Origin: Ginglymostoma cirratum
Taxonomy: Eukaryota
Direction of reading: 5' to 3'
Assembly: GCA_024137785.1 (NCBI GenBank)
Contig: JAHRHZ010000018.1
Location: forward strand, 35,442,166 to 35,506,165
Length of the DNA: 64,000 nt
Part shown: one piece after another, positions 24,688-57,782 of the stretch
Layout of the letters: every line of letters begins with the position of its first letter
Position numbering within the stretch: position 1 is the first letter of the stretch
Position numbers and translations under genes: made by a program
The notes under the pieces: generated by a model
Seen by the model: only the letters and a program-made list of their open reading frames with translations
Told to the model about the DNA's origin: nothing
Databases searched by the model: none

Positions 24688-24740
24688 TCACCCTGCACCA
24701 AGACCAGAAATCCTTGATATTGGATGCTCTTCATAAAATA
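24688..24740 (-). CDS. Terminal coding exon of the minus-strand gene: (L)FYEEHPISRISGLGAG*
   Basis: Acceptor ttcacttttcaacag|TA. The phase 1 start matches the upstream exon. Open to TGA, with ATTAAA at 24683-24678 just downstream. Confidence 0.65.
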
Positions 24741-25921
24741 CTGTTGAAAAGTGAACTGCAAAAGTGTATACACAACGAAATGAAATAGCATATGCTTTGA
24801 AAACAACAGATACCAAGAGTGAGTTCAAAGCTGTAATTAAATCTTGGAAGTTCAGAATTCCGTTGTGAATGAATCAAGGGATCTCCTACTGTGCTCTGTG
24901 TCACCAGAACCCCTCAATTCAATTGTATCCTTGCAACTTTTTTTCTGGGTTTCCATTGGTCTTTATCTCAGATGATTTCACAACTTTAATGATCATGTAG
25001 CATATGATGTATCCCAAGAAAAAGTTTTTTTTTGGTTCACATTCTGATAATGCACAAAAATAGAGAAGCATAGTAAGAATTTGGATTTTTGTATATGTCA
25101 ATTATGTCTGTGAATATGATGGTGATAAAATTTGCATGTAAGTGACATCTTTATCCAAGTATTCCACATGTTACACCTCACACCCTGAGCAGTAATATTA
25201 AGTGAAGTACAGTACATTATGCTGTGCAACTATGTTTAATGTAACATAAACATTTAGACACTAGTCGACAAATGGAAATCTGCCTCTGCATCTGCTGGCA
25301 AGCTGCTTACTGTAGTCAGCAGCTGAGCATGTTTAGCTCTTGCTGTTGCAAGCAGGGTTCATCCTAAATAATAGTGCAGATTTTTTTCTCCTTTAGGGAC
25401 ATGGAAAGCTTGAATCCAGCAGAGTGTGGCTTTTATTGCACAAATGTTAGAGGAAAAGTCTTAAATCATTGCTTCGATGTGTTAGCATCATCACAGTGCG
25501 CTCATTTAACTTGCACTGTGAAAATTTCGACAGAGCGTGTGCCCAGAAGAAAAGGAGGGGAATGGGGTAAAAGGGAGAATGTCGGGTGCTGATATTAAAA
25601 CAGTGAACTATTTCACAGTCACCTTTGTTTGTAACTACATTATTTTCATATTTTTGTTAGTCATTATGATTAGCAAAGCCCTTCCTTGTTTCCAGCATTG
25701 CTCAACAGGGGAGCTGTAAGTAGTAGAGTCTTAAATGGAATGGAAAGTTATGTTGATGGAATGTTTTAGCTATCCTTAGTGCAAAATTTATTTTAAAAAA
25801 AAACAGTAGAATGTGGGCCATAAGCCAGTCGAGTGTAAATGTTAACTTCATAGTCATTATAAGTCTGCATAGCACTAGATTTTCAACACTTTTCCTCTTT
25901 TTCTCCCTTCTTACTTTTTCA

Positions 25922-26250
25922 GCTTGCCTCAGTTTGTAGCACCTGTCTCTGTGTCAAAAAGGCCGTTGGTTTAATTCCTACAGAACAACGGTGTTCTCCA
26001 TTGTCGACGATGTCGTTCTTCACATGAGTCAGTAAAGTGAATCTTATCTGTCTCCACTGATGGTACTGGTGTGTTAAAGAGATCCCATGGCAGTATTTTC
26101 AGGGGAGCAGGTTGTTTTCCTGGTGTTCAGGCCAGTGTTCACCTCTCAAAAATACACGGACAAGTCATGCATGTAATTTACGATTTGCAGGGCCTTGCTG
26201 TGTATGCATTGGTTGCTTCACTTACCTGCAACAACAAAAGATCCCATTTT
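25922..26250 (+). mobile_element. Degenerate Deu-domain SINE
   Basis: tRNA-like head CTCAGTTTGTAGCAC and Deu core GATCCCATGGCAGTATTTTC...GAGCAGG...CCTGGTGTTCAGGCCA. Confidence 0.6.
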
Positions 26251-26529
26251 GTGTGAAGCCTTTCATGACTTCAGGGTGTCCCAAAGTGCTTTAAAACTAT
26301 TGGAGTACTTTTATTGGATAGAAAATTACAAAAGTGATGGCACTACAAAAAAACTGTTTATTTGATATCAGATTCTTCAGGCGTTCTTGGAAATGATCAA
26401 GCATTAAATAAACACTTTTTTTATGTTATAAGATATCAATCTACTTTTCCTTTTTCTTATAAATAGGACAAATCCAGTACTTTATGAATTGGGTGCAGGG
26501 TAACAGCACGCTATCCCATGGAGACTTAC

Positions 26530-26702
26530 AATTGGCCTGCTGGTACAAACCTGGTCGAGAGACCTCTGCCAGAACAGTGAGGCCTAAGGCCCACACAACA
26601 TCAACTCTGTCCTCAAACACAACAGGCCCGTGAAACATTGACTGGATATTCTCAAGTGAATTGCTGATGAGCTGTATTTGAATTGGGACTTCTGTGTTGC
26701 CA
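26530..26702 (-). CDS. Internal exon of the minus-strand gene: (S)GNTEVPIQIQLISNSLENIQSMFHGPVVFEDRVDVVWALGLTVLAEVSRPGLYQQAN
   Basis: Acceptor aatccag|T, donor AATT|gtaagt. 173 nt, phase 2 to phase 1, open. Encodes a hydrophobic C-terminal helix after a VD motif. Confidence 0.8.
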
Positions 26703-26922
26703 CTGGATTTAATGTGATTCAGAGAAGGGAAATCGGCATTCAGGAAAGTGGAATGATCTGGTAGAGGGTGACCAGGAAAGGAAGATTGAAGACGGGCTGA
26801 TTTTGAAAAAAGGAGTGATCGAGGAAGGTGATAAAGTTGGCAATCAGGTGGGTAGGGGGAGAGGTGTGAAAGATCTGATAGAAATGGAAGCACTGGCCTA
26901 GATTTTGTTGTGAGCTGTTCAC

Positions 26923-27018
26923 CTGATGTACTTTTGATAAGAATTAGGCTTGTCAGTGAGACTTGGGTCATTAACTATCTGCTGCAACTGGGCACCATTT
27001 ACAGGATACCCGTTACGC
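26923..27018 (-). CDS. Internal exon of the minus-strand gene: (K)RNGYPVNGAQLQQIVNDPSLTDKPNSYQKYI
   Basis: Acceptor ctgatactttgcttgcttacag|G, donor CAG|gtgaac. 96 nt, phase 2 to phase 2, in frame with the next exon across a 220-nt intron. Confidence 0.8.
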
Positions 27019-27819
27019 CTGTAAGCAAGCAAAGTATCAGGAAGGTGCTTCAACATATTAGATTGAAGAATCCTTACTGAGCCATACAGATGGCAAAGTG
27101 TGAAGTAACAAAGAAGAAATGTAAATTACATTTAGTTAATTGTGCAGAAAACAACAAGGTATGGGCGTACGTACGGTATTAAGGGAGAGATGCAAGTGTA
27201 AAAAACAGAAATTGCCTGGAAAAGAATTACCTTAATTTCTCTAAAATAATCTGTAACACTAACTATCTTCGGAGGGAATAAGACTGTACACTTGTAAATT
27301 AAATATTTCAGGGCAGAGATGTTATTCTGTAGTAATTATCACTAAGCCTGTTTTAAAAAGTCAGTTACTCCATCTTGTAGAATCCTATACCTTTTCATCT
27401 GACTTCAGAGTGAGTACATTTATCTTAGGATCATGCATCAAGAGTAATCTCTTAACAGCTTTGATCAACAAAGACTGCATTAATACACTCTGTTGAGGCA
27501 CAAGGTATTATTGACAACAGCTTCTGGATTTCCATCTTCTACTATCAGATGTGCAAACATCCAAGTTTGCTGGCATTGATAGTGAACATTTATATGTTTT
27601 TCATATGATTGGTTGTGAGTTGACTGGGCCAATATGGGCTTAGCCTGAAGCAACCTGATCCCATTTGCCAGTTGACAAATGTGGTAACCTCACAAATAAG
27701 TCTGCTGACCCAGATGTCAATGTGAGGAGAATTAAAAGAGGCTAGGTTGAAAATAAAAACAGAAGTACTTGAAATACTTAGCAGGTCAGGCAGCACTGCT
27801 GCAGAAAAATAAAATTAAT

Positions 27820-28435
27820 AGGTGGAATCTTCTGCTCCCCATGGTGGCTAGCTTGGAGGTGAGAAGGTGGTAGGATGGTGGTGAACCTAACCCTCACCAT
27901 CTTCCTGCCTCTAGCAAAATTAAATTCTGGGTGGGAATACTCAAAGTTGTCCTCCCTGCCCTGCTGCCATGTAATGCCCTTTGAGGTCAATTAATTATGT
28001 CTTGACTGCCTTAGCCTGTCACCAATGAGATTATCCAGTTGCAATCTGGCCTGTTACTATGCAGAATGCATGACATCTGCCACAGTGCAGGCACGTTGGT
28101 GGACGTTTTTTTCCCCAATCAAAGAGATTGGACATTGGCCTGGATGTTCTCCACTGGGAGCCAACCCTCAGACCTTGCTTCTGACTCCACCACCCTATTA
28201 CTTAGCTTTTGTCCTTGGTCCTCAGACTTTGAGAGCACTCATAGCAGCACCTTCAGGCCTCTGACTGTCCGGCAGCTCTTGCTGCATGGGACCTCTGTCT
28301 CTTAAATGCTGATTTGGGGTGTAGGCCCACTGATGGCCTCAACACTGCCTGATTGATGTGTGGCTCAATGGGCCTTCCTTGGAAAAGGTAGCATGGATTT
28401 CTCCACACAGAAGGCATCTTGAAAGATTCTGTCCT
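27820..28435. mobile_element. Non-autonomous DNA transposon (Harbinger-type MITE-like)
   Basis: Imperfect terminal inverted repeats AGGTGGAATCTT ... AAGATTCTGTCCT. Confidence 0.5.
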
Positions 28436-28679
28436 ACCTCTCAAGTCAATGCAAAAATTTTTAAAATGCGTGCACAGAATAAAATGGCATTTTCAAGAAG
28501 GATATGTTAAAAGATAATATAAAATGTTAAATAACTATTCAGACATGGCTTTTCTTAAAAAAAACAGGGTCACTTATTCATGTTATGCTTGTTATAAATT
28601 TTAAGTAAGTAAAGAGATATATGAAAATCTACTTCTGTAAAATATAGTGGTACCTACTTTTGTGAATACAAAAATACAT

Positions 28680-28820
28680 TGAATACAATTAATATAGACT
28701 TGGACATAAATAGGTTGGAATGGGTGGATAAATGGCAGATGGAAATTTTTGCAGAGAAGTGTAAAGTGATACATTTTAGTGAGAAGAATGAGGCTAGGCA
28801 ACAAAAAATAAAGAGCACAA
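28680..28820 (+). mobile_element. CR1 RT fragment
   Basis: Translates as DINRLEWVDKWQMEIFAEKCKVIHF, homologous to DIDKLQSWAERWQMELNAEKCEVIHF in the LINE at 8.7 kb. Confidence 0.8.
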
Positions 28821-28829
28821 TTGTAAACA

Positions 28830-29990
28830 TTAGCTTTACACATTTTCGCTCAACCTGGATGCTGACAGCATCCTTGCCTTGCCTTTCCTAGACCTGCCAT
28901 TTTGGGATATGTCCCATCAGCTGGAGCTACCAGATTCTCAGTACTTCTGTTTTGCCTTGCCATTGAGTGCAGACACAAGGTCTGGAAGCTTGTCATTGTT
29001 ATCAGAAGTCCTCACTCAAGACACCTTTCAGTCAGGGAGTCCTGACACACTATGACAAGGATAGCCTACAATACCAGCCCAGCAGCTCAGACACTGTCCG
29101 TCAACTGCACAAGTGATCGGAGTCCGCTTTCTCTCCTTGCAGCAAATGAGGAGCCAGGTGTCAGGCAGTTCACCACCCATCTTGGCTTTTCTCTGCCTTA
29201 TTGTGTTTGTTTTCTTCTGCAGTGAGTGGTGTTAAGGCTGCTGATGTAGTTGTCACAGTTGTTAGTGCTGCCGGTGCAGGTCTGGGAAAGATGGTGAAGT
29301 TTTCTGAGAGAGTGAGAGGCAGTGCATAGGGAACATAGGCTAAGGGGAGATGTGGGTTTTGGGTGGGTGAAAGTGGGTGCAGAAAATGTTGCATGTAATA
29401 GAGAGAGGAGTAGAGTATGAACTGGGGTGGAAAATGAGTGCAGTAGCAGAGATTGAGTGACAGTGTGAGGCTCCAGAGAGAAGATGGTGGCAGTTAAACT
29501 GACCGAGCGCAGGAAGTCATTAGGCATTTTCCTTCACTGTCAGGCATTCCTCCAGATGGTTGAGACTGCAATCACCAAATAGCAACCTTGGACAAAGCTG
29601 CCAGGGTCTGATAGTATGGCTGATCCTGGGGGAAGAGGACATTCCGCTCTGTGTATCACCCTGTCCGTCAGGACCCGCAGGTACCCTTCCTCCTCAAGTG
29701 TGGTGCCAGTTTCCTCTTATTTCCCATGTCTGAGGAAAATATCATGAGCCATAGAGAACAGCTTCAGACTGACAGTGTGTGACTAGGTGCACAATGGACT
29801 TTTAAAAATGGCATGGGCACCAAGGATGCCAGTCAGTTCCAGGATATTGTGTCAATGCCAGGATACCCTGGCACTGGGGAATTTTTCTGGGATGGTGGCA
29901 TCCAGCTAGCATTGGACGAGAGGGGTGCCTTAGGGGCATAGGTAATTAATGAAGCACGTTCAGGATGATAGCTAAGGTTTTGGGAGAGGA
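28830..29990 (-). mobile_element. Harbinger transposon relic with a pseudogenised Myb/SANT-like ORF (about 29490-29730)
   Basis: With frameshifts and stops the minus strand reads MGNKRKLAPH..LRVLTDRVI..RNVLFPQD..QTLAALSKVA..AVSTIWRNA*Q*RKMPNDFLRS, the pattern of the Harbinger/NAIF1-type Myb/SANT domain. Confidence 0.65.
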
Positions 29991-30603
29991 ACTGATGCTT
30001 TGTCAAAATATGACACAATTTAGTCCTAAGTTTCAGAGGAAGCTGGCAGGATGTCAAACTTTTTTCCAGAGAAGCAGCAGCTGTTTTCCCCTCATGTACC
30101 CAGACTGTGTAGCCTCTGCCATCCTTTGCCCAAGCTGCACCTTTAATGGTGGAAGTACCCATTTGTATACATTGTGTTTAAGTTACTTCCCCTTAATTAC
30201 ACAAACTTTATCAGGGTCAATAACAGGAACTACCATCTTCAATCAAAGACTCAGACTTTTCGATTTATTCCTGCTACCACCTACTGTGCGTCTCAAAGAC
30301 ATGAGGAGGGGATAATGCAAGGAACACGAGTGAACCATGAAAAGTATTCTGATCTCAGCCTTGTGAGCAGGGCAAAATCAATGGCTCCAATTGGTTAATC
30401 AATCACCAGCCAATGTCATCTGAACTTTCCACTGAAGTAATAAAGTAGAGCTTATTTTTCCTCCAAACTTGAACATAAGATGTAAGAAGTTTTGTTGCTG
30501 GAGCTTGTATTTTACCAGGCTGTTGTTTTGTGGATTAATTTACAATTGTCCAAAACATCTCTTTGTCTTTTATATTTTAATGATATAAAACCACATGGTT
30601 TGA

Positions 30604-30954
30604 TTTATTTTTGTTCATTGACAGGATGAGGGTGTCACTGGCTAGGCAACATTTTTTGCCCATCCCTAATTGCCCAGAGGGCAGTTAATAGTCAACCACA
30701 TTCCCGTGGGTCTGGCATCACATCTAGGCCAGACCAGATAAGGATGGCAGTTTCTTTCCCTAAAGGACAGTAGTGAACCAGATGGGTTTTTCCAACAATC
30801 GATTCATGGTCATCATTAGACTCTTAATTCCATATATTTTATTGATTTCAAATTCTACCATCTGCTGTGGTGGGATTTGAGCCCAGGTCCCCAGAACATT
30901 ATCTGGGTCTGTAGATTAACAGTCTAGCAATAATATCACTAGGCCATTGCCTCC
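30604..30954 (-). mobile_element. Full-length tRNA-derived SINE with a CR1-type tail
   Basis: Minus strand starts GGAGGCAATGGCCTAGTGATATTAT (A-box region) and has GGGCTCAAATCCC (B box). The tail GGGCAATTAGGGATGGGC...GCCAGTGACACC is shared with the CR1 3' fragments. Same family as 52708-53025. Confidence 0.85.
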
Positions 30955-32985
30955 CCAGATCTTCACTATGTTTCAATGACAGTCTTACCAACATTAGGTG
31001 ACAGACATTGGTAGGTTTCAGGGTTGGCTCGGCAACACTCTCTTGACAACTTTAAATACAGGAGACCTGTTGAAAATACACTTGTAAGATTTGTGGGCCA
31101 GGATTGTAGGAGATTAAGGAGAAGACAACACAACACAAAGGGAAAAATGGGATTTATATTTTTAATCCATACAGCTATCAGTGTTTTTTTAACAATGAGA
31201 ATTACTGTGAATATATTTTAAAGTATACGACATGTAGGAGAAGATAGTTTAAGGCAGTCATTGTTTATTTAAAAACAGTAAGAGGACCCTGGAGCTGTGA
31301 GGTATATACTGAGGTCTGTTAGGAACCAAATTGTATGGGTGATTACTGTAAATCTTTTTATTTTGATTTGCCCATAATTTAGTGTAATTTAGGGCCATGA
31401 AATTTCTTATTGCAAATGCTTTCACATTTAACGGCTCTAAGCAACCATGAAAATGTAAGACTTGCAAAAATTGCCAGGATTGGCCTTCAGAGTCCCAAAG
31501 TGGCATTTCTATAATAAGCAAATAAACACAACAAAATAAGCATGTTTTACTTCAGTGAATTCAAGGGATATTTCCAAAGAAATAAATATTGGTTTTGACT
31601 TTCTTGCACATGAGTTTTTTTTTATTTATTTTAACCTCGGCCACGATAATTACATTTCAGTAGTGGAAAATATTCCATTGCACTCTGCACAGGGAAAAAT
31701 AAACTATTAACCAATCCGATACACATTCACTGAGAGCAATTTTTAGTTTGAAAATCCTGTTTAAACATTTTGCTTAGGTTTATTTAGTATAGCTTTTACA
31801 GTATACGGCACTTCTGCAGTTTAAGATCTAAACACCTGGAACTTAATTTTCAGCACACTCAAAATTAATCTAGTCTTTTCAGTTTATGCAATAGTAGCTT
31901 GAATAGAGGAATTAATGTATATTACACTTCAACTGTATCTTGAGAAAACGGGGCTTCTTTGCATTGTGTACAATTATTTTTCATTTACCAGGGATCTCTA
32001 ATAACTACTGCAAGAAATTGGGTGTTTTGAGTATATGTTCGTGGCAGGCATGTAGCTGCTTGTGGTCTGGTAGGCCTGTCCATGCACTGGATTGAATTTG
32101 ATATTAAATTTCTGTGGAAGTGTTAGAGGCTTCAAAATGCTGTGCTGCAATACACCATTCTGAAATAAATGTGACTTGCTTTCCTTCGTTGGAAGTCTTG
32201 AAACAAATCTAGTGCTAGAATTGCTATCAGTGAGTAAGCTGCATTATATTTATTTTTAATGTGAAAAGTGCTCAAACCATCTAAAAATAAACAGATGCAT
32301 AGCAGTTCATTAGACTGCCTGCTTCGACTGATTTTCCCATTGATTAGTCTCAGTACTAATGCCTGCTCATTCCTCACTTCATAACTAATTAACGTCAGTG
32401 CCTTTCTGACTGGTTGACTAGTTTCAAGATCTCGGAGCATGTGTGAATTTATATGGACAGATATGGCAAATATAGTCTGACTACATTACATTAAAGAATT
32501 CCACTTAGCCACTAGAGAATTTTAACCCTAAAATTCATAGAATATCACAACAAAAATTACTTCGGGATTCTTTAAAAAGTTAACAATGTACATTTGTGGT
32601 ATTTACCATATTTGTGTTTTTTGAGTTGAGTAATGTATTTTTGAGAACTATCACTCATTCTGCATATGTGGAGTCCAGAAAAAAATAGTTTATTGGTCCA
32701 TAAGAAAACTAATAATGTGGGTAAGGAAAACATACCAAATCCTTGCTTTTAAATTCTAATTCAAAGGAGCAAGTATTTTGTCCCCTGTTTGATTTTTATT
32801 TCCTCCCGTTGCCAATTTTCTCTTATCCTGGACTCTGCTTGGTAGTGTTTACTCTGTTTGGGCTTGATTGCGAGTTCTAGTAGCTTGTGTAATTACTGGC
32901 CATTTTTTAAGTACGTATCTAGATTGTAAATGTGAACATGCGACGGAGTGCAGTGATGATGAGCCCTGATTCTGCACGCTGCTAA

Positions 32986-33655
32986 GGCAGAATCTTATTC
33001 AAGCATCTGCTCTGCTGGTTGGAAAGTGAGTGAGAGACTCAGGCTTCTTTACAGGACGTCCCATCAAGTCAATTGCCAACCGGAAGTGCCAAGGCAACCT
33101 GTAGGTCTTCCCCACAATTGGAAACTGGCTCAGCAGCATCACAGGGGGAGGCTGTGACTGCTGCTGGGAACACAACCACCAAAATCCCAGACTGACCCAC
33201 AACAAGTGGGAGTGGGTGGGAGGGGAGGGGGTCAGATTTTTGCAAGATCAGAATTTTTGGGGGAAAGGAGAGCAGAGAGGTCAAAGGTCGAGGGGGCGGC
33301 TTTTAGTGGAACCCAGTTTCCTGAAATGCTGAGAGTACTCTTGATGGAGAGGGCACTCCAACCCTGCACACTGGAGGTGACAAGCTAGCCATGGTCTCAG
33401 CCACTATACATGCAACATTGTGACAGGCCCATCTTCAGCTGAGTTAATCCCAAAACCGTGGGATTCAACCTTTAAGTAATCGATAATTGGCAGTTAAGGG
33501 CCTCCAATAGTGGCAGGGTTCAAAGGCTTGCTGCCCTGAATCTAATTTCAGCAGAGGCGGGCAGGTAGCAGGATACAGGTACACCACTGTCAGTCTAATT
33601 AAATACCTTCCTACCGCTAGGCCTTGGCACCAATGGGAGCAGAAGATTCTATTCC
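32986..33655. mobile_element. Non-autonomous DNA transposon (Harbinger-type MITE-like)
   Basis: Imperfect terminal inverted repeats GGCAGAATCTT ... AAGATTCTATTCC. GC-richer interior similar to 27820-28435. Confidence 0.5.
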
Positions 33656-33767
33656 TGATGTCCACATGCCAGCGTGGGTTAATGAATAGCATAAATGCTG
33701 AAGCAATGGGATATAGCTTTTGCATCACTTGCTAAGTGTTACTGATCTCATCATCTGAGAAACTGAC

Positions 33768-33903
33768 TTTATAATTTTAATTGGCCTTGTTTTCTTGTGG
33801 AAACATAAGTTGTTTGACCGAGCAATAAATGCTCCTGTTACAGTACAAATTTTAGGTGAATTCGATGCTTGTGGTGTTGGACGTTTTGTTTGAAATTCCT
33901 CAT
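33768..33903 (-). CDS. Internal exon of the minus-strand gene: (Y)EEFQTKRPTPQASNSPKICTVTGAFIARSNNLCFHKKTRPIKII
   Basis: Acceptor tttgtatttccag|AT, donor AAA|gtcagt. 136 nt, phase 1 to phase 2, which is exactly what is needed to join the 40963 and 27018 junctions. The donor position is less certain than the acceptor. Confidence 0.7.
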
Positions 33904-36249
33904 CTGGAAATACAAACTTCAAATTTCGCATGCTTCCCTTGCCACAGCAGAGCTTCCATGTTGTTAAAAATGGGAGCCTTAGTGGTGAAATAGATAATTC
34001 TAGTGTAACTTCTGGAGCCAGCACATATTCATGATATGTATTTTAAATGCCTCTAATGGCATGAATCTGATCAATGTGATTGGGAGTGCATGGCTGTGCA
34101 CTCCCATGTGAAATGAGACACACATTTCCCCTTAACATGAAGTTTGTCTAGTTGCACCTAAGTACAGAAGGGAAAATAGATTACAACTAAAGAAACATGG
34201 CCAATGTGTGTGAGGCAACATAGTGCAATGTATTTTATTCACTCAATCATCCTATCAATAATGCTGGGGACTGATGAGAGATTTGTCATATTAGTTCAAT
34301 GGTATCATTTTACCCATAGCTAATATTTATATACTTCATGCCGATATTACCATAATGCAAGTTCAGAATTTTAAGTAAATGTTAATGTTCAACTACTGAG
34401 TCATTATTTGGGAGTGCAACTGAAAGAAAGTATTTTAAGTTCTTAAAATCATTATTACAATTTAATGACACTCTGTTTGAAAACATAGAAAGAATGTATG
34501 TCCTGATTTTTGTATTAGTACCCACTGTATAAGTGTTTTATAGAATCTCAGAAGGAGATCGTTCAGCCCATTATGTGTGTCCAGTTCTTTGAAAGAGATA
34601 CCAATTAGCCTCACCTTCCTTTTTTTTATGATAGCTCTCTAAATCTTTCCTTTCTCAATATATATCTCGCCATCTTTTGAAAATTTAGTGGCAAACTAAA
34701 ATTTAGAAGCTTAATTATTAATTAACGAGTCAACTAATTATTGTCCCAAATGTTTCGGTATTCGATTATACCCATTGGCTTATGAGTAAATGAGGTCCAG
34801 TGACTCCAATCCAATCTGAACGAATGGAGATACATGATGAGTTCAGAAACTGCAGCATTATTCTTCCAAGCAGAACAACTGAGAATATACGAGCACTAAA
34901 CGTTTAAAAAAAAGTTCCCCTTTATACAGATTAAAACGACCAAGTTGATAATGGTGAAAACATGGTTGTGTTTGGGTATTATAGCCATTTTCATCCCTAA
35001 GGTGCTCATTATCAGCTTGAGTGATATGGTCATAGTGCACTCTAGCATGATGATGATGCTACATTTCAGTGATCAACCATGAAACTTGCGCCAGGAATAC
35101 GGTTAGGAATAGTTCCAGGCCAATTAAATAAACAAATCGTAAAGTGAATAGTTGAAAGGCTTAATATAGATGAACGTTGCCATGTTTTAATCTGTAATTT
35201 GTTTGTTCTTTTCCCCTTTGCAACTGTATGGTTCTTCATCTTCATTAGGTAATTAAAGACTAAGATGTAATTTTTTTTTCCATTGAGGAGCTAGTAGCCA
35301 AAATATTACTTCGTTTGGTGAAGGTAGTAAGCTAAATATATATTTTAAGATTTTAGAAGGACTAGTATCTTATTTTGAGCTCTGCAGTATTGCTTTCCTT
35401 GTTGAATTCTATTCTTTACCACATTACCTCACCACATTAGCACTTGCATCTCCCTCAGATGGCATTCTGTTTCCATTCCATTCACAGTGGCCAAGGATCG
35501 TATCACATAGGCACTTAGAAATACAATGCGCACTACCCCTGAGAACACAATTGCTTTCACAGTCAAAAGTATTGATCAGCTCTATTTCTGGTTTTCCATT
35601 CAGTCAGAGCTTTTGCTAGGAGTTGTTTCTTTTTCATTGGGGAGGGAAGATTTAAATAAAAATTGGATGACCCTTCTTACTCCCACCTCCCCATCTGCAA
35701 TTGCTTTAATGCTATTCTCAACAGATTGAGTTGCCATTGTTGATGTGTTTTGTAATCTGTCAATGCTGACATTATCAGGTACAATATTTATCTATATCAT
35801 TGAAAATTAGATTTTTTTTAGAATTTGTTAAACATTTTTATTTTGTTACTATAGAGTATTACAATTTTTTTTATTATTTTAGTTTTAGTTGAAAAACATA
35901 ATTTGTGTGCTGCTTTAGTGAGAGAAAGAAACAGCATTGAGCGCATAAGAGGTGATGACAGTGTGCAATATTAAATGGAATGGTATGCAGGTTGGCTATT
36001 ATAATAAGAAAATTCAGGTCAAAATGTATATTATATGATGGGTACTGGGTACAGTTCAATTTCAATTGTTGACCATGAGAGGTTTACAGAGGTCAAGCGC
36101 AAAGAATTCTTTCCACCATCTGCTTTCACTATCCAAATTGACATTGTTTTTGCTGCTTTCTTCTAGAAAGTAGATGTTGCTTTTTGTTTTTCTCATGGGG
36201 AAATTATCTTATTAGATAAATGAGCATGTTGTGACTTGAGAAGCTGGAA

Positions 36250-36972
36250 ACCATCTTAGGTCAGTGGAGATAAAGATGGCGGGTAAGTGGGACTTGGTGT
36301 GGGATACAATACTGGCAGTAGAGGTTTCAATGAATTGAAGTTTTCAAAGGATGTGTAATGGAAGGCAAGGGATGGACACATTAAAATAGTTGAAGCTGGA
36401 GCTAACAAATATTTAGATGAGGGTGTCAGGTAACAAATGAGTTGAGGTTGCGACAAGCATTCCACTGCTTGGCGAGGGTTGGAATCCTGATCGGAGAAAT
36501 TGAAACCTGATTTCAGGAAAGATGGGAAAAGACATGCGGAAGGACTTTGGAGTGGAAAGGGAGTTTGAATATCAATAGCTTATAAAGGTAGAAAGTATCA
36601 AACTGTATTTTGAGGCAAGGAGTGATGTTGGCAGTCTTGAAATATAAGACGGCAGTGCCTGAGGAGGTGGAACCATTTACAATATCTGACATCAGCATCA
36701 GAAACAGAAATTAATTGTGAATGGGGTCAAGTGCAAAAGAGATAGAACTCTCGTAGACATGATGAGGCCAAAGAGAACCTGGGAAGGATGGGAGGGAAAC
36801 CAGAGGAATATAAAGGCTCAATTCTTATAGAGAAGTTTCTCAAGCCTAATGTTTTGGTTGCTTGCCCTACTGATGTGGCTCAGTGTCAAACTTTGTTCTC
36901 GAACTTTTCAATGAAGGGATTTGCTATGTTTTATTATGTTAAAGATGCTACATAAGTACAAATTGTTGTTTG
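36250..36972. mobile_element. L2-clade LINE fragments (RT region on the minus strand, L2-type 3' tail at about 36870-36972 on the plus strand)
   Basis: ORF 36513-36698 (SDIVNGSTSSG...FKTANITPCLK...KLPFHSKVL) matches the L2 RT N-terminal pattern IVNxSLSSG..FKxAxITPLLK..NLPFLSKVLE. Tail ATGTTAAAGATGCTACATAAGTACAAATTGTTG. Confidence 0.7.
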
Positions 36973-39900
36973 CATTGTGTTACAAAATGTGGAGAAACCT
37001 ACAGATCTAGCTTGAACACAGCAATTGTCATATCCAGTTCTAAGATTATAATTTGTACAGTATAAAGTCTGAAATGGTGATGGCCATGTTCTTCATGGAT
37101 TTGGCTATTCTGAGCTCATTCTGTTTGATTCAAAATGGGCTTCAAAGGTACACAGTGCAAAAACATGTTACGTTTCTGTTACTTTAGATTAGGAACACAC
37201 TCTGAAACTGGCTGTGCAGCTCACAACAAAGGTGTGATCATTATATTTGGAGCTGTACTGTACAATGTGACAGCTCAAGCTGGTGTAAGACAGTTTCCTG
37301 GAGGAGATCAAACTCTACATTCCTTTTCACATTGTGAGTTTGTTAATCTTATAACTTTACTACCACTTTCACATTACCAAATAACTAAGTCACAGTATAA
37401 ACATACCTTTAAACTGACTGTCTTCTGCAGCTGAACTGGAACAGATGTTCGAAGAACTCTTAATTGATGAGATTTGGTTAATGTTCAGCCAGAGACCCTG
37501 TGCATCATTACTGGAGGTGTTACTTTTCCATTGATGACACAAGTCCAATCCATGTCTTATGAATGTAGAATTTATAATAGGCATTCATTTTTTTCACTAA
37601 TTGTTACGAAGCATTTTATTAATAGCAGCTTTAGCCATTAAATTACATTTCAATAACAGGTTTTTCACTATTCTTGAGTTCAGCAGGTATAAGCACTTAT
37701 ATAAATGTATCTGTTTAGATAATGGTCATCTTTCATATAACTACTTGGTGACAAAGATTATCTTGAATCTCACATAAAGCTTTATAATGAATTGATTGTC
37801 ACCTCCCTGAGCTGTTGACTTCTGCCGACGATGTTAAAGCAAGGTTTTAGATAAATGCCATGCATATTCTAACAGGGAAATGGGGAAGCATCAGAGTAAC
37901 AATCATGAACTACATTTTGTATGTTGTGCAAATTGTTTCAACGCCAGTAATCGCTTGTAGTTGCTGTTTGTGGAACACTATCATTTACTATGGTGACAAG
38001 GATCAGCTTGGGGACATATGACCTTACCTTGGATTTGATTTTCTATATTTCCAGATTAGCACCTTGTCTTAGTTTTTTGGTGATGATTACATTCAGATTG
38101 GGATCCCATCAGTTGAATAACTGTGGTTGTGAGCTGCGGTTTCGCATATTGATTTATCCTGTGCTCACACTAGGATTCGTAACTGTTACTTTTCTGATAC
38201 TAATGCACATTGTAATGGAGTGATAGTTTGTGTTGATTTTCCAAAATGACTGATAACCAGAAATGACAAATAATAGCTCGAATGTTTTGCAACAACTTTG
38301 ATCTTTGCAATCTCTTTCACAGTGGGGTTTGGTGAAGTTGTGGTGGTGGAGCAGGTTGAAATTCCAAACCATTATTTCTACATATAATGGAATGTAAGAG
38401 CAATGGGTTAAAGAATGTGAAGTAACCCTAATACCAAATCAGAAGTTAAAAATCTGATCCATACTCATGGATGAAGGTTTTGATAGAGGCCGATCCCTTC
38501 TCTCAAGTAATATGGGAGGAGACACTTTGATATTAGCCCATTAATTCTTTTATTTTTCATGACTTTGCAGAAATGTTTGCGCTTCTTTAAATTTTTGTTT
38601 GCATTAATATTAATTGGATCGCCTTCCTGTTTCAATTGCATTTGACAGGGCAGAAATTATGATCAAAATTGCACGAATTTTCTGATTTTGAATCTTTTCC
38701 TCCAGTTTCCTTTAAACTTATTGGTGAATCATAAAATAGAGCAACCAAGCCATGTTTAAGTGTGTAATTTTCTTTATTTGCATTTGATATATTTTGTATG
38801 GGCAGTTCAAAATGGGTTTATCACAAAAAAAAACAGGCCACAACACTCAATGCCAATGTTTTGTCAGCCATACTAAACACTATTCTATGTAGTTCAGTAG
38901 TGTGGGAACTGGGAGTCCCTCAAGTAAACAATGTAGGCATTTTGTGACATCAGTTAGCATACAATGCTGACTTAACTCAAGCAGTGCCATTTTCAAATCA
39001 AACATTCTAGCTAATGTTCTCTTTTAACCTTACATGGCTGAGCATGTGTTCAGTAGCAGGAATGACTCCCCTGTTTAAAGGGACCATCAGTTTACCAGCT
39101 GATTAATTTTTGCTGTTTGATGCTCAGTGAGTACAAGTGCATTGAAATTTATACTCTACCTAAGTTTACAGGGAGTGTTGTGGCATCTATTGGAGGCCTT
39201 GGTCTGATTTCAAGAGTTCTGCTCAGGCCACCAGTTATGTGAATGCAGCATTTTCTATTCCTGTTGGGTTACATCATAAGGAGAATGAGCAGAAGTGAAT
39301 CAGAAAAGGAAATGCTGGGGAAAGTAACAAGAAGGAAAGGGAGAAATGCTATCAACAGGAGGCTATATCCATGCAGAGCCTTTAGGGTGCAATTTGCAAC
39401 TTCAGTGAGGAGCGGCATGTTCAATGCCTCTGTTTCAGAAGGAAGCACTCACTGAAATCTCCCACCTGTTACAAGGAAACCCACAACTTCAGAGCAGGGT
39501 GAAGGTGACATTGCTGGTGGCGGTGAAGATGACAGCATTTTTCTGCATTACATTTTTCCCATTGGGCTCCTTGCAAACTGCAGCAAATGACATCTCCATC
39601 ATCCCACAGTGCATCATGCATTGTGGTAGAAGAGAGGCCACTAATGCTGAACATGGGGGCAGGTCAGAGTATGTCACATCCTTTCCTTGAGATTAGATAG
39701 TGACTCATTTATAAGGAAATGATATGTGAAAGCATATTCATGGACTTTGACCATTTTTTTGTGAGATCATCAAACTTTTCTGTAGCCCTCCATCCAGCTG
39801 TCTACTCCCAATGCCTTCAAAGATTTCTCCGTGATTAGAGCATCCCTGTCCTTCAGTGTTTACTCAGAGAACTTTGCATGTTCTTCCTGCCTGGACACAT

Positions 39901-40962: not shown

Positions 40963-41111
40963 AAATGCTCCCATAGTATTGAGTTCCAATGGTCCTGGTG
41001 ATTCTGATTTCCCAACTCCGTGATGCAAACCTGAGCCTCTTTTCCCTACCAGTGAAAATGAGTTCTGTCGGAGATGAGGACCAGATTTCCATGTTTGGGC
41101 CCCACTCACCA
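40963..41111 (-). CDS. Internal exon of the minus-strand gene: (N)GEWGPNMEIWSSSPTELIFTGREKRLRFASRSWEIRITRTIGTQYYGSI
   Basis: Acceptor gtatttttcctgccaaaag|T, donor ATTT|gtaagt. 149 nt, phase 2 to phase 1, open. This frame is not listed in the ORF track. Confidence 0.75.
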
Positions 41112-41378
41112 CTTTTGGCAGGAAAAATACAGTCTTTTAGTCAATGCCTGTGAACAGTCTGATTTTAAAACAAAACAAGTTGTTACCATTTACTCATACC
41201 ATTGCTGTACTCAAATCTGATTCTTAATATTTAAAAGCTTAAAATATACATATATTTGCATCTTTGATCATAAAGTTATTTATTTCTTCTTTTACATAAT
41301 GCGCAAAATGTTTTTACTTGCCTCTGTTTCCTATGCGTCATTTCTTTGTATTTCTGTTTTCTAGTCTTTTCCACTTAC

Positions 41379-41480
41379 TTGAGTTCTCTGAATGCTATTC
41401 CTCTCTCATCTCCTCCATGTCTTTCATTTGGAGTACGGAGATGTTCCAAAGTTCTCATGTGTAAATGAATCTTTCGGAAA
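41379..41480 (-). CDS. Internal exon of the minus-strand gene: FRKIHLHMRTLEHLRTPNERHGGDERGIAFREL
   Basis: Acceptor tttgctgctttttccag|T, donor CAA|gtaagt. 102 nt, only one open frame (phase 2 to phase 2), in frame with the next exon. Confidence 0.8.
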
Positions 41481-42069: not shown

Positions 42070-42180
42070 TGCACAATACCACAATGTCTATACTTCAAAA
42101 GTACATCATTGGTTATGAAGTGCTTTGGGATGTCCTGAGGTCATGAATGATGCTACATAAGCGCAAGTTCTTTCTTTTAA
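42070..42180 (+). mobile_element. 3' tail of a Deu-domain SINE
   Basis: ACTTCAAAAGTACATCATTGGTTATGAAGTGCTTTGGGATGTCCTGAGGTCATGAATGATGCTACATAAGCGCAAGTTCTTTC. Confidence 0.65.
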
Positions 42181-44783
42181 TGTGTTTCTCCCTGGGGTAG
42201 GAATATTTGATTTGTTTTGATTTTTCTCCCTTTCCTTTCTGGCCTCCTGGGCTACCTAACTTCTAAAGCTGAGATGGCATGTACATAACCTGCTCTTTAG
42301 TTGATGAGATTTTCTCTGAATCTCTAGATTCTCTCTTCGTTTTCCTGATTTCTTAATTCTTCCCTATCATGGTGTGAACTGATTTAGAGCCCCTTTCTGT
42401 ACACTGTTGGTTCAATATAAGGCAGGAGCACAGCCTTTCTAGCGGCCTGAATAAATTAATTCACCAAACTTAATCCATAACTAAAGTTATACTCTTGCAT
42501 ATTTCTTTCTGGAATGGGCTGGTTTTGCTTTTCAGCTATTTAGCTTTGTGATTTGCTTGGGACTTTTTTTTCTCACTGCCTGGTTGGTTATTGGGGAAAA
42601 TGGTCTTCTTCCTTTTGTGGAACTTGCCCAATCTTCATTTTGTCATCAGCTAAAAATATGCAAACCCTTTGCACCGAGTTTTTAAGACTAGTCCCAAAGT
42701 AATTTATTTGCACAGAAATGACAAACTAAAACCCAAAGGAGCAGAGGATAGTGAGCAGCTATATGTGAACTATTCATTCTTGGACCTAGGGCAATGTTGG
42801 ATGGCAGGGCGCGAGCATTACTTCATTCATAATGTAAGTTATCCAAATACTTCAAGATTGAGAAACCCCAGTAAGGGAGGTCTCACTTTCATCAATCTCA
42901 ATTATGGTTGTACAGTGGTGAAATAGGTAAACATGTAAGTTTGTGGCATGACAAAGTAGCACTGAGAGACAAAATACTAATGCCTAATGCCACTGAGTTA
43001 CAGGTGAGTGCTCAACTCTGTCAGCTGGTTTCCCAATTTTAGCAGCATAGGCAGTATAGTTGTTGTGTCGGAGATGTACAGGGGCAGAAAGAAAATTGGA
43101 AGAGACTTCAACAGCACTTCCTTCTCCTGTGACCTCTGTTCCTGCAAAGGACAATAACAGAAGTATTGTGAAAACACTGCCACCTTCAAACTCCTTTCTA
43201 AATCACACATTTCCTGATTTGGATATATCTTGTTGTTCATTGTCTTTATGGTAATGACTTGGAATTCCCTGTCTCTATCCTACTAGTAGAATGATTGCTA
43301 GGAAGTCTGCAGTTGTTCAAGGAGATTGTTCAGTATCATCCAGCCAAAGATAGACAATAAACACAACATTGTCTTTTCCCTTAGAATGAAGGAAATGTCA
43401 AGTCTTTTGATTCCCCAGTGCTTTCTGGTGGCTAGTTACAAAGACCAGAGGCTGCAATGAGAAGCTGGCCAATCATTCTCTCGGCAGCAGGTTTGCTGAG
43501 ACCAGGGACATGGAAGATACAGTTGAATTTACCAGAAGAAAAGTGCATTAAAAATTAAAAGAAATGCAACTGTACTATCAAATTCAAACATTCATCAGTG
43601 TAAGAAAAACGTATGCTAACTGTACAAGTTCAATGTCTCAGAGCCTTGAAAGCCCACAGTGATCATTTAGATGTTTTTATTTTAATTACATTCAAAAGTA
43701 TTAATCATTTCATCCTGTCATTCCAGTTTCCATTTTTTTCTGTGTGTTACACTGTGCTAAATGGTGATGGATTTCATTATTCTTTCTGTGGTGCTGTAAT
43801 TAACTGAAATCCGCACAAACTAATTTTGTGCACAAACATATCCTGAAGATTGCTTTGGCTTGTATCAAAAATAATATAGTTAGGCCTGTGCAGAACAAAT
43901 TTAATTTGATAGCAGGTGGTTTGATAAATCACGAGTCAAGTACTTTTCCTTTTTTAACTGGGCTTGGATTATTGGGGTGAAGGGAAAAGTCTTCAAAAGC
44001 TCTTCTTCAGCATATTTGTTGTTTAAGATCCAAAACTGAACTCAATGCAAATCAGATTTTGTCTATGGAGATGTTAAATTGTATGTTTTTTATTGTAAAG
44101 GTTACTTTTGTATTAAAGTAAAGGCCATGACTGCATAACGAGGAGAGAAATTAGAATACCACTAGTCCATATTTCAGAAAATGAAATTGAGATTCCCTAG
44201 AGGTTTATAAGGAGTTGCTTTAGGGAAGAGGAAGCATTTAATGCAGCAGTGAAAGGAACCAAAATAAAGAGCTCACTGGTTCTTGTGTAGGCTGAAAGTA
44301 GCACATGAGAAGCAGCATCTAGCATCCACGCATTCAGCATCGGCATTAGGTTTCATTTCCTGTTAGAGATAGAAATGTATAGCAGATAAAATCATCATTT
44401 TGTGAACATTAGAGGATTGTTTCTAAGCTTTTTATCAGAGCTGTCAAAATGTATTCACAGAATTGGCCATGCACTTAATCTTCAATAATTCTGCATAGTT
44501 TCTCAAAATAGTTTTAAGTTCAAAAATCTATCCTGTTGTATTCCAACATATTGCTGGACATTTTGTCAACACTGGTTATTCTGATATACTGTACAATTTA
44601 TAAGATATTCTGGTCATTGTGAATTCTGGATCGGTACAAAGGAAATGGTTGTTGCAGTTCTTCCCTATTACCATAAATAATTTTCTTTTTGCTCAAATTA
44701 ATGCTGCATGTCAAGCAATTCTTTATGAAGACAATATGATGCAGCCTGCCAATATGTCTGTGTCACTCCTTGTTTACTTTTAC

Positions 44784-50256: not shown

Positions 50257-51145
50257 CTAAGTACATGATTACAGCAGGTCAAGCAGCATCATAGGAGCAG
50301 GAAAACTTGACGTTTCAGGCCTAGACTCTTCCAGATGACATTCTGAGGACCAGGGTTCAAATCCAACCACAGCAGATGTTGGGATTTGAATGGAATAAAT
50401 ATCTGGAATTCTGAGTCTAAATGATGACCATGAACCCATTGTTGATAGTCAGTAAAACCCATCTGGTTCACTAATGCTCTTCAGGGAAGAAATTGGCCAT
50501 CCTTATCAACACGTGAGTCCAGACCCACAGCAATGTGGTTGACTCTTAACTTCCCTTTGGGCACTTGGGGATGGCCTAGCTCGCCCTCATCCTCTAAATG
50601 AATTATTAAAAGGTACTGGAACACATGGTACTGGCAAAGTAGACAATGCCTGTAAGAAGTGTGTACTGTAACTGAATGCTTGCATTTCCTCTCCACCAAG
50701 AGGTGAACTGCCAATAACCAGTTGGATTAGCACTGATATTAGTTACATTACAGAGATTAGACAGAAACCAGATCAATTAAAAATTCCCCAGTCGGGGAAC
50801 TGAAGGAAGACAATGGATCCACATTTTTACCTGTTCAAGTCCAATGAATTTGATAAAACATGTAAATTCTATCTTCACACTGGTGTATTGATGAGGTTCA
50901 CAGCTCTTTAGAAGTTTGAATGTGCTAAACTGCATTAAAGTGTGTGCTATTAAAATACAGCCTCAAGTAGCATATTATTGTCAATGTGCCTTTACTTCAG
51001 ATTTCTGATGAAGGGTCTAGGCCCAAAATGTCAAGTTTTCCTGCTCCTATGATGCTGCTTGACCTGCTGTGTTCATCCAGCCCCATGCTTGTTATCTCGG
51101 ATTCTCCAGCATCTGCAGTATCTTTTATCTCTAAGTACATGATTA
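50257..51145. mobile_element. Penelope-like (family A) composite insertion: inverted termini enclosing a captured 665-bp local sequence, flanked by a 15-bp TSD
   Basis: CTAAGTACATGATTA at 50257-50271 and 51131-51145. The left arm (50271-50331) is the reverse complement of part of the right arm (50996-51132). The interior 50331-50995 duplicates 52745-53394. Confidence 0.85.
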
Positions 51146-52744: not shown

Positions 52745-53394
52745 CCAGATGACATTCTGAGGACCAGCGTTCAAATCCGACCACAGGAGATGTTGGGATT
52801 TGAATGGAATAAAAATCTGGAATTCTGAGTCTAAATGATGACCATGAACCCATTGTTGATAGTCAGTAAAACCCATCTGGTTCACTAATGCTCTTCAGGG
52901 AAGAAATTGGCCATCCTTATCAACACGTGAGTCCAGACCCACAGCAATGTGGTTGACTCTTAACTTCCCTTTGGGCACTTGGGGATGGCCTAGCTCGCCC
53001 TCATCCTCTAAATGAATTATTAAAAGGTACTGGCAAAGTAGACAATGCCTGTAAGAAGTGCGTACTGTAACTGAATGCTTGCATTTCCTCTCCACCAAGA
53101 GGTGAACTGCCAATAACCAGTTGGATTAGCACTGATATTAGTTACATTACAGAGATTAGACAGAAACCAGATCAATTAAAAATTCCCCAATCGGGGAACT
53201 GAAGGAAGACAATGGATCCACATTTTTACCTGTTCAAGTCCAATGAATTTGATAAAACATGTAAATTCTATCTTCACACTGGTGTATTGATGAGGTTCAC
53301 AGCTCTTTAGAAGTTTGAATGTGCTAAACTGCATTAAAGTGTGTGCTATTAAAATACAGCCTCAAGTAGCATATTATTGTCAATGTGCCTTTAC
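52745..53394 (+). repeat. Source copy of the local duplication (SINE body plus about 370 bp of flanking sequence)
   Basis: Near-identical to 50331-50995 (about six substitutions by eye and one 15-bp indel). Here the SINE head continues upstream to about 52708. Confidence 0.95.
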
Positions 53395-54085
53395 ATCAAC
53401 TTTTTCTGTTTGCAGTGGCTCTTTGTGGTGAATTTGTATAATGATACAAAGTATTTTGGATGGTGATGATAAAAATAATCCTTATTCTTTTTAAGAAGGG
53501 GTTGTGCTATACTTGAAGTTTGCACTTGCAGTTGTTCCCCTATCCACCCCTGTACCCGACCCTATCTTCAAAGACCTAAATCTTGGCCAAGCAATCAGAA
53601 GAAGAATGATCGTGTCAGGCCGATGGAAGTGAAGCCAGTAAATGAGTCAACCCCCGCCCCCACCCCCGTCACACTTTTATGTTTTCCAGCAGATGAGGAG
53701 AGCACAGTGCCCAGAAAGTGATTTGCTGCCCATTCTCTTTGGTTTGTAAAGTACCTGAACTGAGGGCCAGTATTTCTAACAAAAACTTTCTTATATTGAG
53801 GAGGGAAAAATGTAATTCTTTATGTCTTCTAAAAGCGAACTTGTACATAAAGTATGAAACATTATTCCTCTATGAAAGCCCTATCTGCTACTTGCAACTA
53901 ATTGTTTTATCGCCACTTAGGAAATAAATGGAAGATTTTCACTGGCAATGCGTTATGCCACAGAGTGGTGGCTGATGGGATTGCATTTGCAATTCCTTCC
54001 CAGTCAAATGTTGGGTTTGGTGGATGCCAGGCACCAACCTACTGGAAGGAAGAAAAAGCCAGTGTGGTCCAGACCGGAACCCTTC

Positions 54086-55226: not shown

Positions 55227-55680
55227 CTGTGGCTCAGTTAGTCGCACTCTTGCTTCTGAGTTGCAAGATACATGTTTCAATTCCCTCTCTGGGGCTGGAG
55301 AGAAAAGACTCGCACTGTCGTGCAGTGCTGAGGAAGTACTGCGCTGCCAGATGTGCCGTCTTTCAGATTAGGTGTTACCGGGACCCCATCTACCTGTTCA
55401 GGTGGATGTAAAGTATTCTCTGGCACTATTTTGAAGATGGACATGGGAGTTACCCTCAGTGTCCTGTCTACTATTTATCCCTTGATCAGGATCACAAAAT
55501 ACAGATTGCCTGGTCATTATCACATTGCAGTTTGCGGGAATTTGCTGCGTGCTAATTGGCTGCAGTGTTTCCTGCATTGCTACAGTGACGACACTTCAAA
55601 TGTAAGTATTTCATTTCCTGCAAAGCACCTTGATGTGTCCAGTGATTGACATAGCTTTTTTCACAATGTCAGCCTTTACT
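55227..55680 (+). mobile_element. Near full-length Deu-domain SINE (SacSINE1-like)
   Basis: tRNA-like head GTGGCTCAGTTAGTCGCACTCTTGCTTCTGAG, Deu core GGTGGATGTAAAG...TGGCACTATTTTGAAG...CTGGTCATTATCACATTGC...AATTGGCTGC, and an L2-like tail. Confidence 0.8.
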
Positions 55681-56411
55681 TTTAATCTTTTTACAGAGTC
55701 CACCAGGATGGCAGGGAAGGTGTGAAGGCCTGCCTGCAATACTGGCTTCATGGCATGAGGTCCAGGCAGTTAAACCCTCCCCTGTTGCCTTGGCAAACTG
55801 GAGGTTGAGTGTAAAATTCCACCTTACCTCCTTTAAAGTGCCCTTAATAAGTCCCTTAAAGAAGCTAATTGGCAGCTCGCCTCATGGAACAGAGACTAGT
55901 GTTACCTGCCCTGAACCTCCCTTAGATTAAAATGGCCATGCCAGGAACAAAAGTCTGGATTCTGCCACACCATTTGCTGGCAGTATTTTGGGGGTTCTGC
56001 CTCCTCTGTCTCTGTCCCGGGCAAAGCTAGAAAATTCAATCTTAAGTGCCTATGTGTATCTCATGCTCTGAAATGATAACCTTTGGTATTGCACAAAGAT
56101 GAAATGTCATCTTCACATCACTCTTTTTTTTAATGAGAGTATAAATGATGCCACGTAGTGATGTTAAGGATATCATTTTATTTTGTGGGCGCAGGTGGAA
56201 GTAGTAACTAAGCTTTTATTTTCATGATAAATTTGGTCACTGATTAAAATACTGACATTATTTCTATACTTTTTTTAAGGCTGTGGCTATTGATTGTTTT
56301 GACATTAGTAATTGATGTGATGAGAAAGTTTTTGGATGCGTGAAATATGACACAATATTTGGTGAGAACCGGAATGCAGTGTCGTGTCTTGCGCATTTTT
56401 ACAGCCGAACT

Positions 56412-56745
56412 CTTTTTTTCAGCTTAGCAAGCATGGGGCTGGATGAACACAGCCGGTCAAGCAGCATCATAGGAGCAGAGAAACTTGACGTTTCGGGCCT
56501 AAACCCTTCATCAGAAATGGGGGAGGGGAAGAGGGTTCTGAAATAAATAGGGAGAGAGGGGGAGGCGGATAGAGGATGGATAGAGGAGAGGATAGGTGGA
56601 GAGGAGGCAGACAAGTCGAAGAGGCGGGGATGGAGCCGGTAAAGGTGAGTGTAGGTAGGGGGGTAGGGAGGAGATAGGTCAGTCCAGGGAGGACAGACAG
56701 GTCAAGGGGGCGGGATGATGTTATCTCTGATACTTTTTTTCAGCT
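56412..56745 (-). mobile_element. Penelope-like family A terminal fragment with a 13-bp TSD
   Basis: CTTTTTTTCAGCT at 56412-56424 and 56733-56745. The interior has the family A terminus and the GA-rich subterminal region, ending in a short TTATCTCT that matches the opposite-orientation end. Confidence 0.85.
56483..56518 (-). ncRNA. Intact minimal type I hammerhead ribozyme motif (family A)
   Basis: Minus strand AUUU-CUGAUGA-A-GGG(UUUAGG)CCC-GAAA-C-GUC-AAGU: complete core, 3-bp stem II, stem I AUUU/AAGU, loopless palindromic ACGU helix III, GUC cleavage triplet. Confidence 0.75.
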
Positions 56746-57753
56746 GACGTTTTAAACTAGTTCAAATGCTGCCAAATTAACTAAACTCGTTTTGCCGTTA
56801 GTTTTGTCACTTCAATAATGTCAGCTAACTTCCATAGTAAAGAATGTAAACCAGTCAGATCGGAGTTCCAGTTATATTTGAGATAATAGTGCACACTCTT
56901 GAATATTTTTCCAGCTAACACCTAATTTACTACGTCGAGCTTTATTGGTTGATGATACTGAAAATGAATGGCTGTATCTAGATTTAATTTTGAGATTGCT
57001 GATGTGGAATCAAGAAAATCTTTCCAGCATCATGTAACAAAAAAAAAGCTCCAAACCAAGAGATTTATTTTTCAATCCTGTGCGGCTATGATTATTAAAC
57101 TGGCCAAAATGATCTACATGTAGAACGTCCGGATGGACAGTCTTGCCCTCATGTTTGTTTGCTTTTCTGTGTTCTGTACGGAGGAGTGCCTCCTTCAGAT
57201 GACCTGGCTGAGATGGGAGGGCTCAGCAGATGAAGGATTACAGGAGAGAACCAGTTCTGTACCAGTTTAATGCAAGGTTGCTCTGTGCCATTTCTACATT
57301 CTTGCTCACAGTTTGTTTTATTCTACGGAATTTGATTGTATTGTTTTGGCGTTAGCGTTTCCTTTTAAATAGGATACGATTACTATTTAAGTAAAGGTAA
57401 CTTGCAAAGGGTTACAAATTATTCAACAAAATTACTACAGTATATCTTCAAACTCAATTGCCATTTTTTTGGGAGGCGGGGGCTGGTTTTAATTCGGCAA
57501 GATTATTTTTAATATTCTAAAAATAGGGCTGGGATGGTTATCAGTACAGTTACACCATTTTTTAAAAGGGATAATTGAAGTGCTCATCTGGTTCAGGTGA
57601 TATGCCTCTTGCTTGTAGAAATTGGGGTTCTATGCCACAGTTAGGGTGCTGATCACAATTATCAGGGGCATGTGGAGAGCGGGTATTAAGGATCCTTAAA
57701 GGTACCTCCACTAGCTACTCCAAAAAAACTATCCCAAGACATTTCTCAGTTAC

Positions 57754-57782
57754 GGCTCTGTAGACTCCTCTGAGATCGACAT
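57754..57782 (-). CDS. Candidate first coding exon of the minus-strand gene: MSISEESTE(P)
   Basis: GCTATG start about 45 nt downstream of a TATA box. The donor CC|gtaact is weak but is phase 2, matching the exon at 41480. Confidence 0.45.

Follow-up and report, generated by a model that had tools for sequence, protein, structure and literature searches.

Proteins of the LOR superfamily are described as twelve-stranded barrels built around a buried C-terminal helix and possessing an internal symmetry, the scramblases among them carrying a cysteine palmitoylation motif; the distribution given for the LOR family comprises plants, fungi, eubacteria and archaea (PMC2639001). A vertebrate gene of this type had been proposed from a window of 64,000 nucleotides (nt) of the shark Ginglymostoma cirratum (contig positions 35442166-35506165 of a 4.36-Gb assembly). 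The original prediction joined six minus-strand exons and a candidate first exon into a hidden spliced gene for a LURP-one/Tubby-C/scramblase-like protein. The locus can also be compared with lineage-restricted orphan genes that occupy the antisense strand within, or next to, the large locus of a developmental regulator. The candidate resembles this class in being single copy, in having no detectable relative and in occupying the strand opposite to the nuclear-receptor gene ESRRG. Our analysis indicates that the window probably contains a real, unannotated, lineage-restricted gene. The family call, in contrast, is unsupported: judged by its sequence, the peptide should not be filed with the LURP-one/Tubby-C/scramblase proteins, though it may possibly work in a like manner.

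The anatomy of the candidate is as it had been described. AG precedes each of the six minus-strand segments, their coordinates agree with those claimed (Table 1), the phases match, and the joined exons form a single frame that is open over 235 codons and five junctions up to a TGA terminator at 24690-24688; the remaining two frames of the join contain stops. The length of 245 amino acids is reproduced when all seven exons, including the candidate first one, are joined, and the frame is then likewise free of stops. The donors of the five internal exons read GTAAGT, GTAAGT, GTCAGT, GTGAAC and GTAAGT, so that the first of these hexamers is found at three of five donors, against six occurrences in the whole 17 kilobases (kb). 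The splice sites of exons 41480-41379 and 27018-26923 belong to the top 2% of the window and the others lie at its 52nd to 96th percentile. The repeat mask overlaps no exon, both N stretches in the window fall outside the gene, and AATAAA or ATTAAA hexamers are located 4, 557 and 589 nt beyond the stop codon.

Statistically, a gene is favoured by an exon-pair test covering 664 kb of the region from a G-patch gene to ESRRG on both strands, which after masking of repeats (15.5%) amounts to 1.12 Mb. With strict thresholds, a close, in-phase and open partner is found for two of 21 strong exons; both pairs belong to the candidate gene and lie in one 15-kb stretch of a single strand. At a moderate setting four of 96 exons have a partner, two of which come from the candidate (background 2/94).

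Several results, in the statistics, the RNA reads and the searches for relatives, weigh against a gene. The strict thresholds were picked with the candidate exons in view and the effect of the pair test is therefore suggestive and no proof, and looser settings provide partners for 18 of 96 exons, for 27 of 310 and, at the loosest, for 76 of 310. Neither a fourth-order coding model nor a codon model is significant (5587 and 2568 of 20,000 random exon sets, respectively, equal or exceed the score of the five internal exons), and in an amino-acid model these exons exceed the null but again not significantly, with 3141 of 50,000 draws at or above them. The coding models were trained on 58 G-protein-coupled receptor and kinase stretches of the same genome (40 for the codon model); since eight held-out true exons scored barely above zero, the coding tests are of low power. 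A crude chain-building gene model ranks the 18-kb block only 16th of 26 and recovered only two candidate exons with exact boundaries plus one donor, but it was run without repeat masking and with approximate splice matrices, and consequently has little power. In a combined score, genuine ESRRG exons take ranks 1, 2 and 8 of 2187, and the best exons at the candidate donors rank 26, 34, 184, 348 and 1434. The splice and composition frequencies behind all these tests are approximate values. As to the exons themselves, 33768-33903 is only the ninth by splice score among the phase-compatible candidates in its interval, and a stronger donor, CAG/GTAAGT, is present at 40942 on the minus strand, 21 nt past 40963, the use of which adds an in-frame TGA. 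That the exons exceed chance is thus borne out only in part: the pair test favours a gene, the coding statistics and the chain model do not.

Four of 15 listed sequencing runs were mapped to positions 23000-42900, a stretch that ends short of the candidate first exon. None of the runs listed as containing the sequence is recorded as RNA, which carries no weight as to expression. Only one of these, run X12, is a confirmed RNA run with aligned reads; run X13 aligned no reads and so provides no test. None of the splice joints shown (15 of 39, from four runs) falls at a candidate intron, and most of them stem from a repeat at 30.6-30.95 kb that dominates the read alignment with a contig depth of tens of thousands-fold. 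In X12 (polyadenylated RNA, 24% read) depth is zero over the exons at 41.5-41.0 kb and 33.9 kb and, except at the repeat, below 3 across 23.7-31.6 kb, introns included. The same block is covered in run X1, where a 2216-nt contig crosses two exons unspliced; in run X2, 27 of 30 bins are covered and reads pass the exon edges unspliced. Over the last three exons the RNA observed is unspliced, and the lack of junctions in the sampled runs is weak evidence against splicing. In X12 and X1 the unspliced block (23000-31600) stops near 31.6 kb, where the plus strand has an AATAAA (31581) and, beyond it, a T-rich run. Such an end suggests a polyadenylated RNA antisense to the candidate, and the block is likely to be a long terminal exon or a non-coding RNA on the plus strand, antisense to the last three exons. 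Of the sequence words, 31% were present in two sequencing runs of a second organism.

Exons 26702-26530 and 41111-40963 have no relative among the longer proteins of a collection of 5.8 billion. A control search shows that at least 19 chondrichthyan species are represented in this collection, among the matches listed, and simulated orthologues of 80% identity share three words with the one exon in all 200 trials and with the other in 199. When the identity is lowered to 50%, only 52 and 38 of 200 simulated orthologues pass the word filter. HMMER with exon 26702-26530 against 1.84 billion representatives gave six multi-stretch matches, the two examined being internal repeats; here simulated relatives of 50% identity are detected in 179 of 200 trials and those of 30% in 11 of 200. 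By these comparisons a close annotated protein is absent from the collection, and distant relatives may still exist. No Pfam family was found for five single exons (a phage match at E 0.16 was rejected), NCBIfam had no match to single exons, and PDB sequences contained none for one exon and, for the other, a weak alignment with leptin that spans 36 residues at E 0.5 (window 26531-26701, minus strand) and was rejected as chance. A plasmid search returned a single match at E 6, metagenome and prokaryote contigs gave no match, and an atlas search yielded a best score of 0.79 and no usable match, a result that speaks to neither absence nor novelty. No description of such a gene was found in the literature listings searched, and supplementary gene lists of genome papers could bear on its novelty. 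The claim that the protein has no recognisable vertebrate name is consequently upheld, as no protein relative of any kind was found in these collections.

Membership in the LOR, scramblase and Tubby families was assessed with our own profiles, made from 24 prokaryotic LOR proteins (with no plant or fungal members), ten actinobacterial scramblases (an eleventh, short match was dropped) and 110 animal PLSCRs of 200-370 amino acids, chosen from at least 120 matches. With HMMER, shuffles score at or above the spliced peptide in 74 of 2000 cases for LOR, 250 for bacterial scramblases and 261 for PLSCR. Mixed profiles give 350 and 755 of 2000, and a pooled LOR and bacterial scramblase profile reported no match for the peptide. 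The best of 22 pairwise tests against PLSCR reaches a z of 3.1 with one matrix, a value that does not recur with the other. In hhalign the probability is below 1% in all eight settings, a method with which just two of six true LOR controls obtain a clear score against the PLSCR profile. The best local hhalign alignments place residues 73-103 on scramblase and 113-126 on LOR. These are the stretches that had been read as following the LURP-type motif order, but the probabilities are only 0.5% and 0.35%, and 12 and 7 of 60 shuffles, respectively, do equally well. A reduced-alphabet profile, which links PLSCR to LOR in four of four controls (0 of 100 shuffles each), leaves 232, 94, 138 and 267 of 300 shuffles at or above the query on four profiles, the first of these being LOR.

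Since every profile test places the peptide within its shuffles, the family assignment of the original prediction is not supported. Its companion statement, that the protein does not look like PLSCR or TUB/TULP, fits the genome, of which the locus is none of the PLSCR or TUB/TULP loci: searched at E 10, PF04525 (LOR) has no match anywhere, PF03803 (Scramblase) has 12 on other contigs and none at the locus, and PF01167 (Tub, scored exon-wise only) has 24 on five other contigs and none at the locus. What the candidate shares with LOR proteins (PF04525, formerly DUF567) is a similar size, a hydrophobic segment near the C-terminus and one strand-rich predicted exon. It differs from them in the absence of a significant profile score and in a tail of 26 residues after the helix, where the 24 LOR proteins have a median of 8. 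With PLSCR (PF03803) it has in common a few spaced residues, seen by eye in the N-terminal half where the best local alignment lands. However, it lacks the long unfolded N-terminus, a significant score and the cysteine-rich palmitoylation motif of these proteins, the last because there are only two cysteines, not adjacent, among the 245 residues. A resemblance to motifs of animal PLSCRs, also noted by eye, was set aside as unsupported by the profile and hhalign tests. For the C-terminal domain of Tubby/TULP (PF01167), the likeness is limited to the superfamily layout proposed earlier as common.

The structural side of the proposal, a barrel with a C-terminal helix, fares unevenly. The single-sequence model of the 49 residues of exon 41111-40963 is a four-strand meander of low confidence (predicted local distance difference test, pLDDT, 57), and a hydrophobic segment does occur near the C-terminus. 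The model of the 57 residues of exon 26702-26530, however, shows two helices instead of strands and a helix (predicted template modelling score, pTM, 0.29), which speaks against the proposed fold. The hydrophobic segment, taken in isolation, is modelled as a helix. This hydrophobic 17-mer is the sole one, 26 residues from the end, with a mean of 1.28 compared with 1.49-1.72 in the family sets, and 401 of 5000 shuffles have an equally strong window within their last 60 residues. Internal two-fold symmetry, measured on the single sequence and with no positive control, is not apparent, the half-against-half score being reached by 101 of 1000 shuffles. The strand-pattern count is 11, as against a shuffle mean of 11.6, and fold searches with the 49-residue model gave no match. 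A transmembrane or secreted protein was considered and rejected, as an N-terminal hydrophobic stretch is absent and the single hydrophobic window is mild.

The candidate first exon is uncertain. Among 107 upstream segments that could serve as an ATG-started first exon of phase 2, only two, this one included, are accompanied by such a TATA-like element. Around it, the ratio of observed to expected CpG in 500-nt bins (0.47-0.61 at 57.5-58.25 kb) corresponds to the 93rd-98th percentile of 2098 bins and is at the level of the ESRRG first coding exon.

Table 1. Exons and promoter-like element of the candidate gene, in window coordinates
Feature	Position	Strand	Remarks
TATA-like element TATATAA	57826..57834 (approximate)	-	About 50 nt upstream of candidate ATG
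Candidate first coding exon, uncertain	57754..57782	-	9 codons + 2 nt; ATG...CC then GTAACT; phase 2 fits next exon; donor 70th percentile
Exon, 102 nt	41379..41480	-	Acceptor 99.1th, donor 99.6th percentile; exact pick of gene model; rank 26/2187 in combined score
Exon, 149 nt	40963..41111	-	Starts 267 nt after preceding exon; predicted four-strand meander, pLDDT 57
Middle exon, 136 nt, weakest link	33768..33903	-	Rank 1434/2187; coding score under null mean
Exon, 96 nt	26923..27018	-	Acceptor 99.7th, donor 98.4th percentile; exact pick of gene model; rank 34/2187
Exon, 173 nt	26530..26702	-	Starts 220 nt after preceding exon; carries sole hydrophobic segment (residues 203-219); single copy in genome
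Last coding exon with TGA	24688..24740	-	Acceptor 94.7th percentile

The candidate gene is antisense between the G-patch gene and ESRRG, its two neighbours, which we take to be GPATCH2 and ESRRG on the grounds of their sequence and the order of the genes. A scramblase exon from another part of the genome is 99% identical to a Chiloscyllium plagiosum record, which marks the host as a carpet shark similar to the bamboo sharks. A G-patch exon is located about 310 kb to the left of the window on the plus strand. On the other side, also on the plus strand, an exon with the C4 zinc finger of a nuclear receptor lies 84 kb to the right; a short upstream coding exon of the same gene is at contig position 35565639 and later exons are further right. 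Three of the candidate exons, searched against the genome, gave self-matches alone at useful E-values, which makes this a single-copy locus. About 9 kb of CpG-retaining DNA, the strongest in the 664 kb, is found at contig positions 35422400-35431400 (approximate), 11-20 kb to the left of the window, with an observed/expected ratio of 0.7-1.3 and a GC content of only about 40%. This stretch is likely to be a distal ESRRG promoter, in which case the candidate would sit inside an ESRRG 5' intron, in antisense orientation.

Other features of the window include two open frames on the plus strand at 8532-9413, which resemble the 3' end of a long interspersed nuclear element (LINE) reverse transcriptase. 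On the minus strand, an isolated exon-like open segment of 72 nt (7665-7594) has a very strong acceptor and donor; neither a Pfam match nor a partner was found for it. The donor at 40942, combined with an inner acceptor at 41064, delimits an exon in another frame that ranks 4 of 2187. The high-copy repeat occupies 30620-30950 and recurs in diverged form at 50.3 and 52.7 kb, and the first intron contains a direct duplication of about 660 bp (50331-50999 and 52745-53398, 96.7% identity). Rfam gave no match in the window.

How should this mixed evidence be read? A chance chain of splice-like sites in the non-coding DNA upstream of ESRRG, with no gene at all, is somewhat unlikely. It would account for the ordinary block score, the non-significant coding and amino-acid statistics, the higher ranks of true ESRRG exons, the absence of spliced reads and homologues, and the unspliced RNA over the last three exons. 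It leaves as coincidences the confinement of both strict pairs to one short stretch of one strand, the small background at the moderate setting and the promoter-like patch at the first exon; moreover, the gene model behind the block score has little power. Real splice sites that no longer, or never did, serve a working protein would be expected of a decaying relic gene, or of a spliced non-coding RNA, in which the exon pairs are still open. The strong splice sites unaccompanied by a strong coding signal, the donor at 40942 that brings in a stop, the weak middle exon and the absence of an annotated protein of related sharks from the searched collection are all consistent with this. A long-dead gene, however, would not be expected to retain an open frame through all 235 codons and across five junctions, and we regard this explanation as quite improbable.

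A real gene could also encode a barrel of the Tubby-C/LOR/scramblase type that has diverged very far, with some 12 strands around a C-terminal helix, and that binds membrane surfaces as the known members do. Size and layout are compatible with such a protein, the strand meander being located in the N-terminal half and the hydrophobic segment close to the end, and the best local HMM-HMM (hidden Markov model) alignments do fall on the stretches named earlier. Against it stand the HMMER, hhalign and reduced-alphabet scores, all within shuffles, the strand-pattern count equal to its shuffle mean, the frequency of the hydrophobic window in shuffles, the lack of an evident internal repeat and the three Pfam families without a match at the locus. 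We consider it improbable, and no more probable that a third branch of the Tubby/scramblase/LOR barrels has its first vertebrate representative here, hidden antisense near ESRRG, absent from all annotations searched and diverged beyond the reach of profile searches. The reading that we prefer is a real orphan gene, although its fuller version, a narrowly expressed gene whose soluble product is rich in strands, buries its C-terminal helix and acts as a binding module, is offered tentatively, as a fair way short of probable. Seven exons would lie antisense and upstream of the ESRRG coding exons, and transcription would start near 57.8 kb, at the patch with the TATA element and the retained CpG. 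Expression would be restricted to a narrow tissue, for which the germ line is our guess, based on the CpG retention and the absence from broad annotation. Splicing would then yield a soluble protein of 245 amino acids with no detectable family. This protein might consist of a cytoplasmic beta-sheet domain, its single hydrophobic C-terminal helix packed in the core and not crossing a membrane, and would most likely be a binding or adaptor module rather than an enzyme. In favour of this reading, besides the exon pairs, the GTAAGT donors and the promoter-like patch, are the count of only two cysteines, the amino-acid score above the null (though not significantly so), the position of the one hydrophobic 17-mer with none at the N-terminus, and the four-strand model of exon 41111-40963.

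The candidate is attractive and testable. If it is real, a multi-exon vertebrate gene is missing from a protein collection that covers at least 19 cartilaginous fishes, and it is located in a conserved regulatory neighbourhood, from the G-patch gene to ESRRG. Should the protein also turn out to be a true Tubby-type barrel, the superfamily, on whose common function there is no agreement, would gain a vertebrate branch. As an orphan, it would mean that shark gene sets still overlook whole genes of this kind, and it would offer a case in which the birth or loss of a gene next to a nuclear-receptor locus can be tested.

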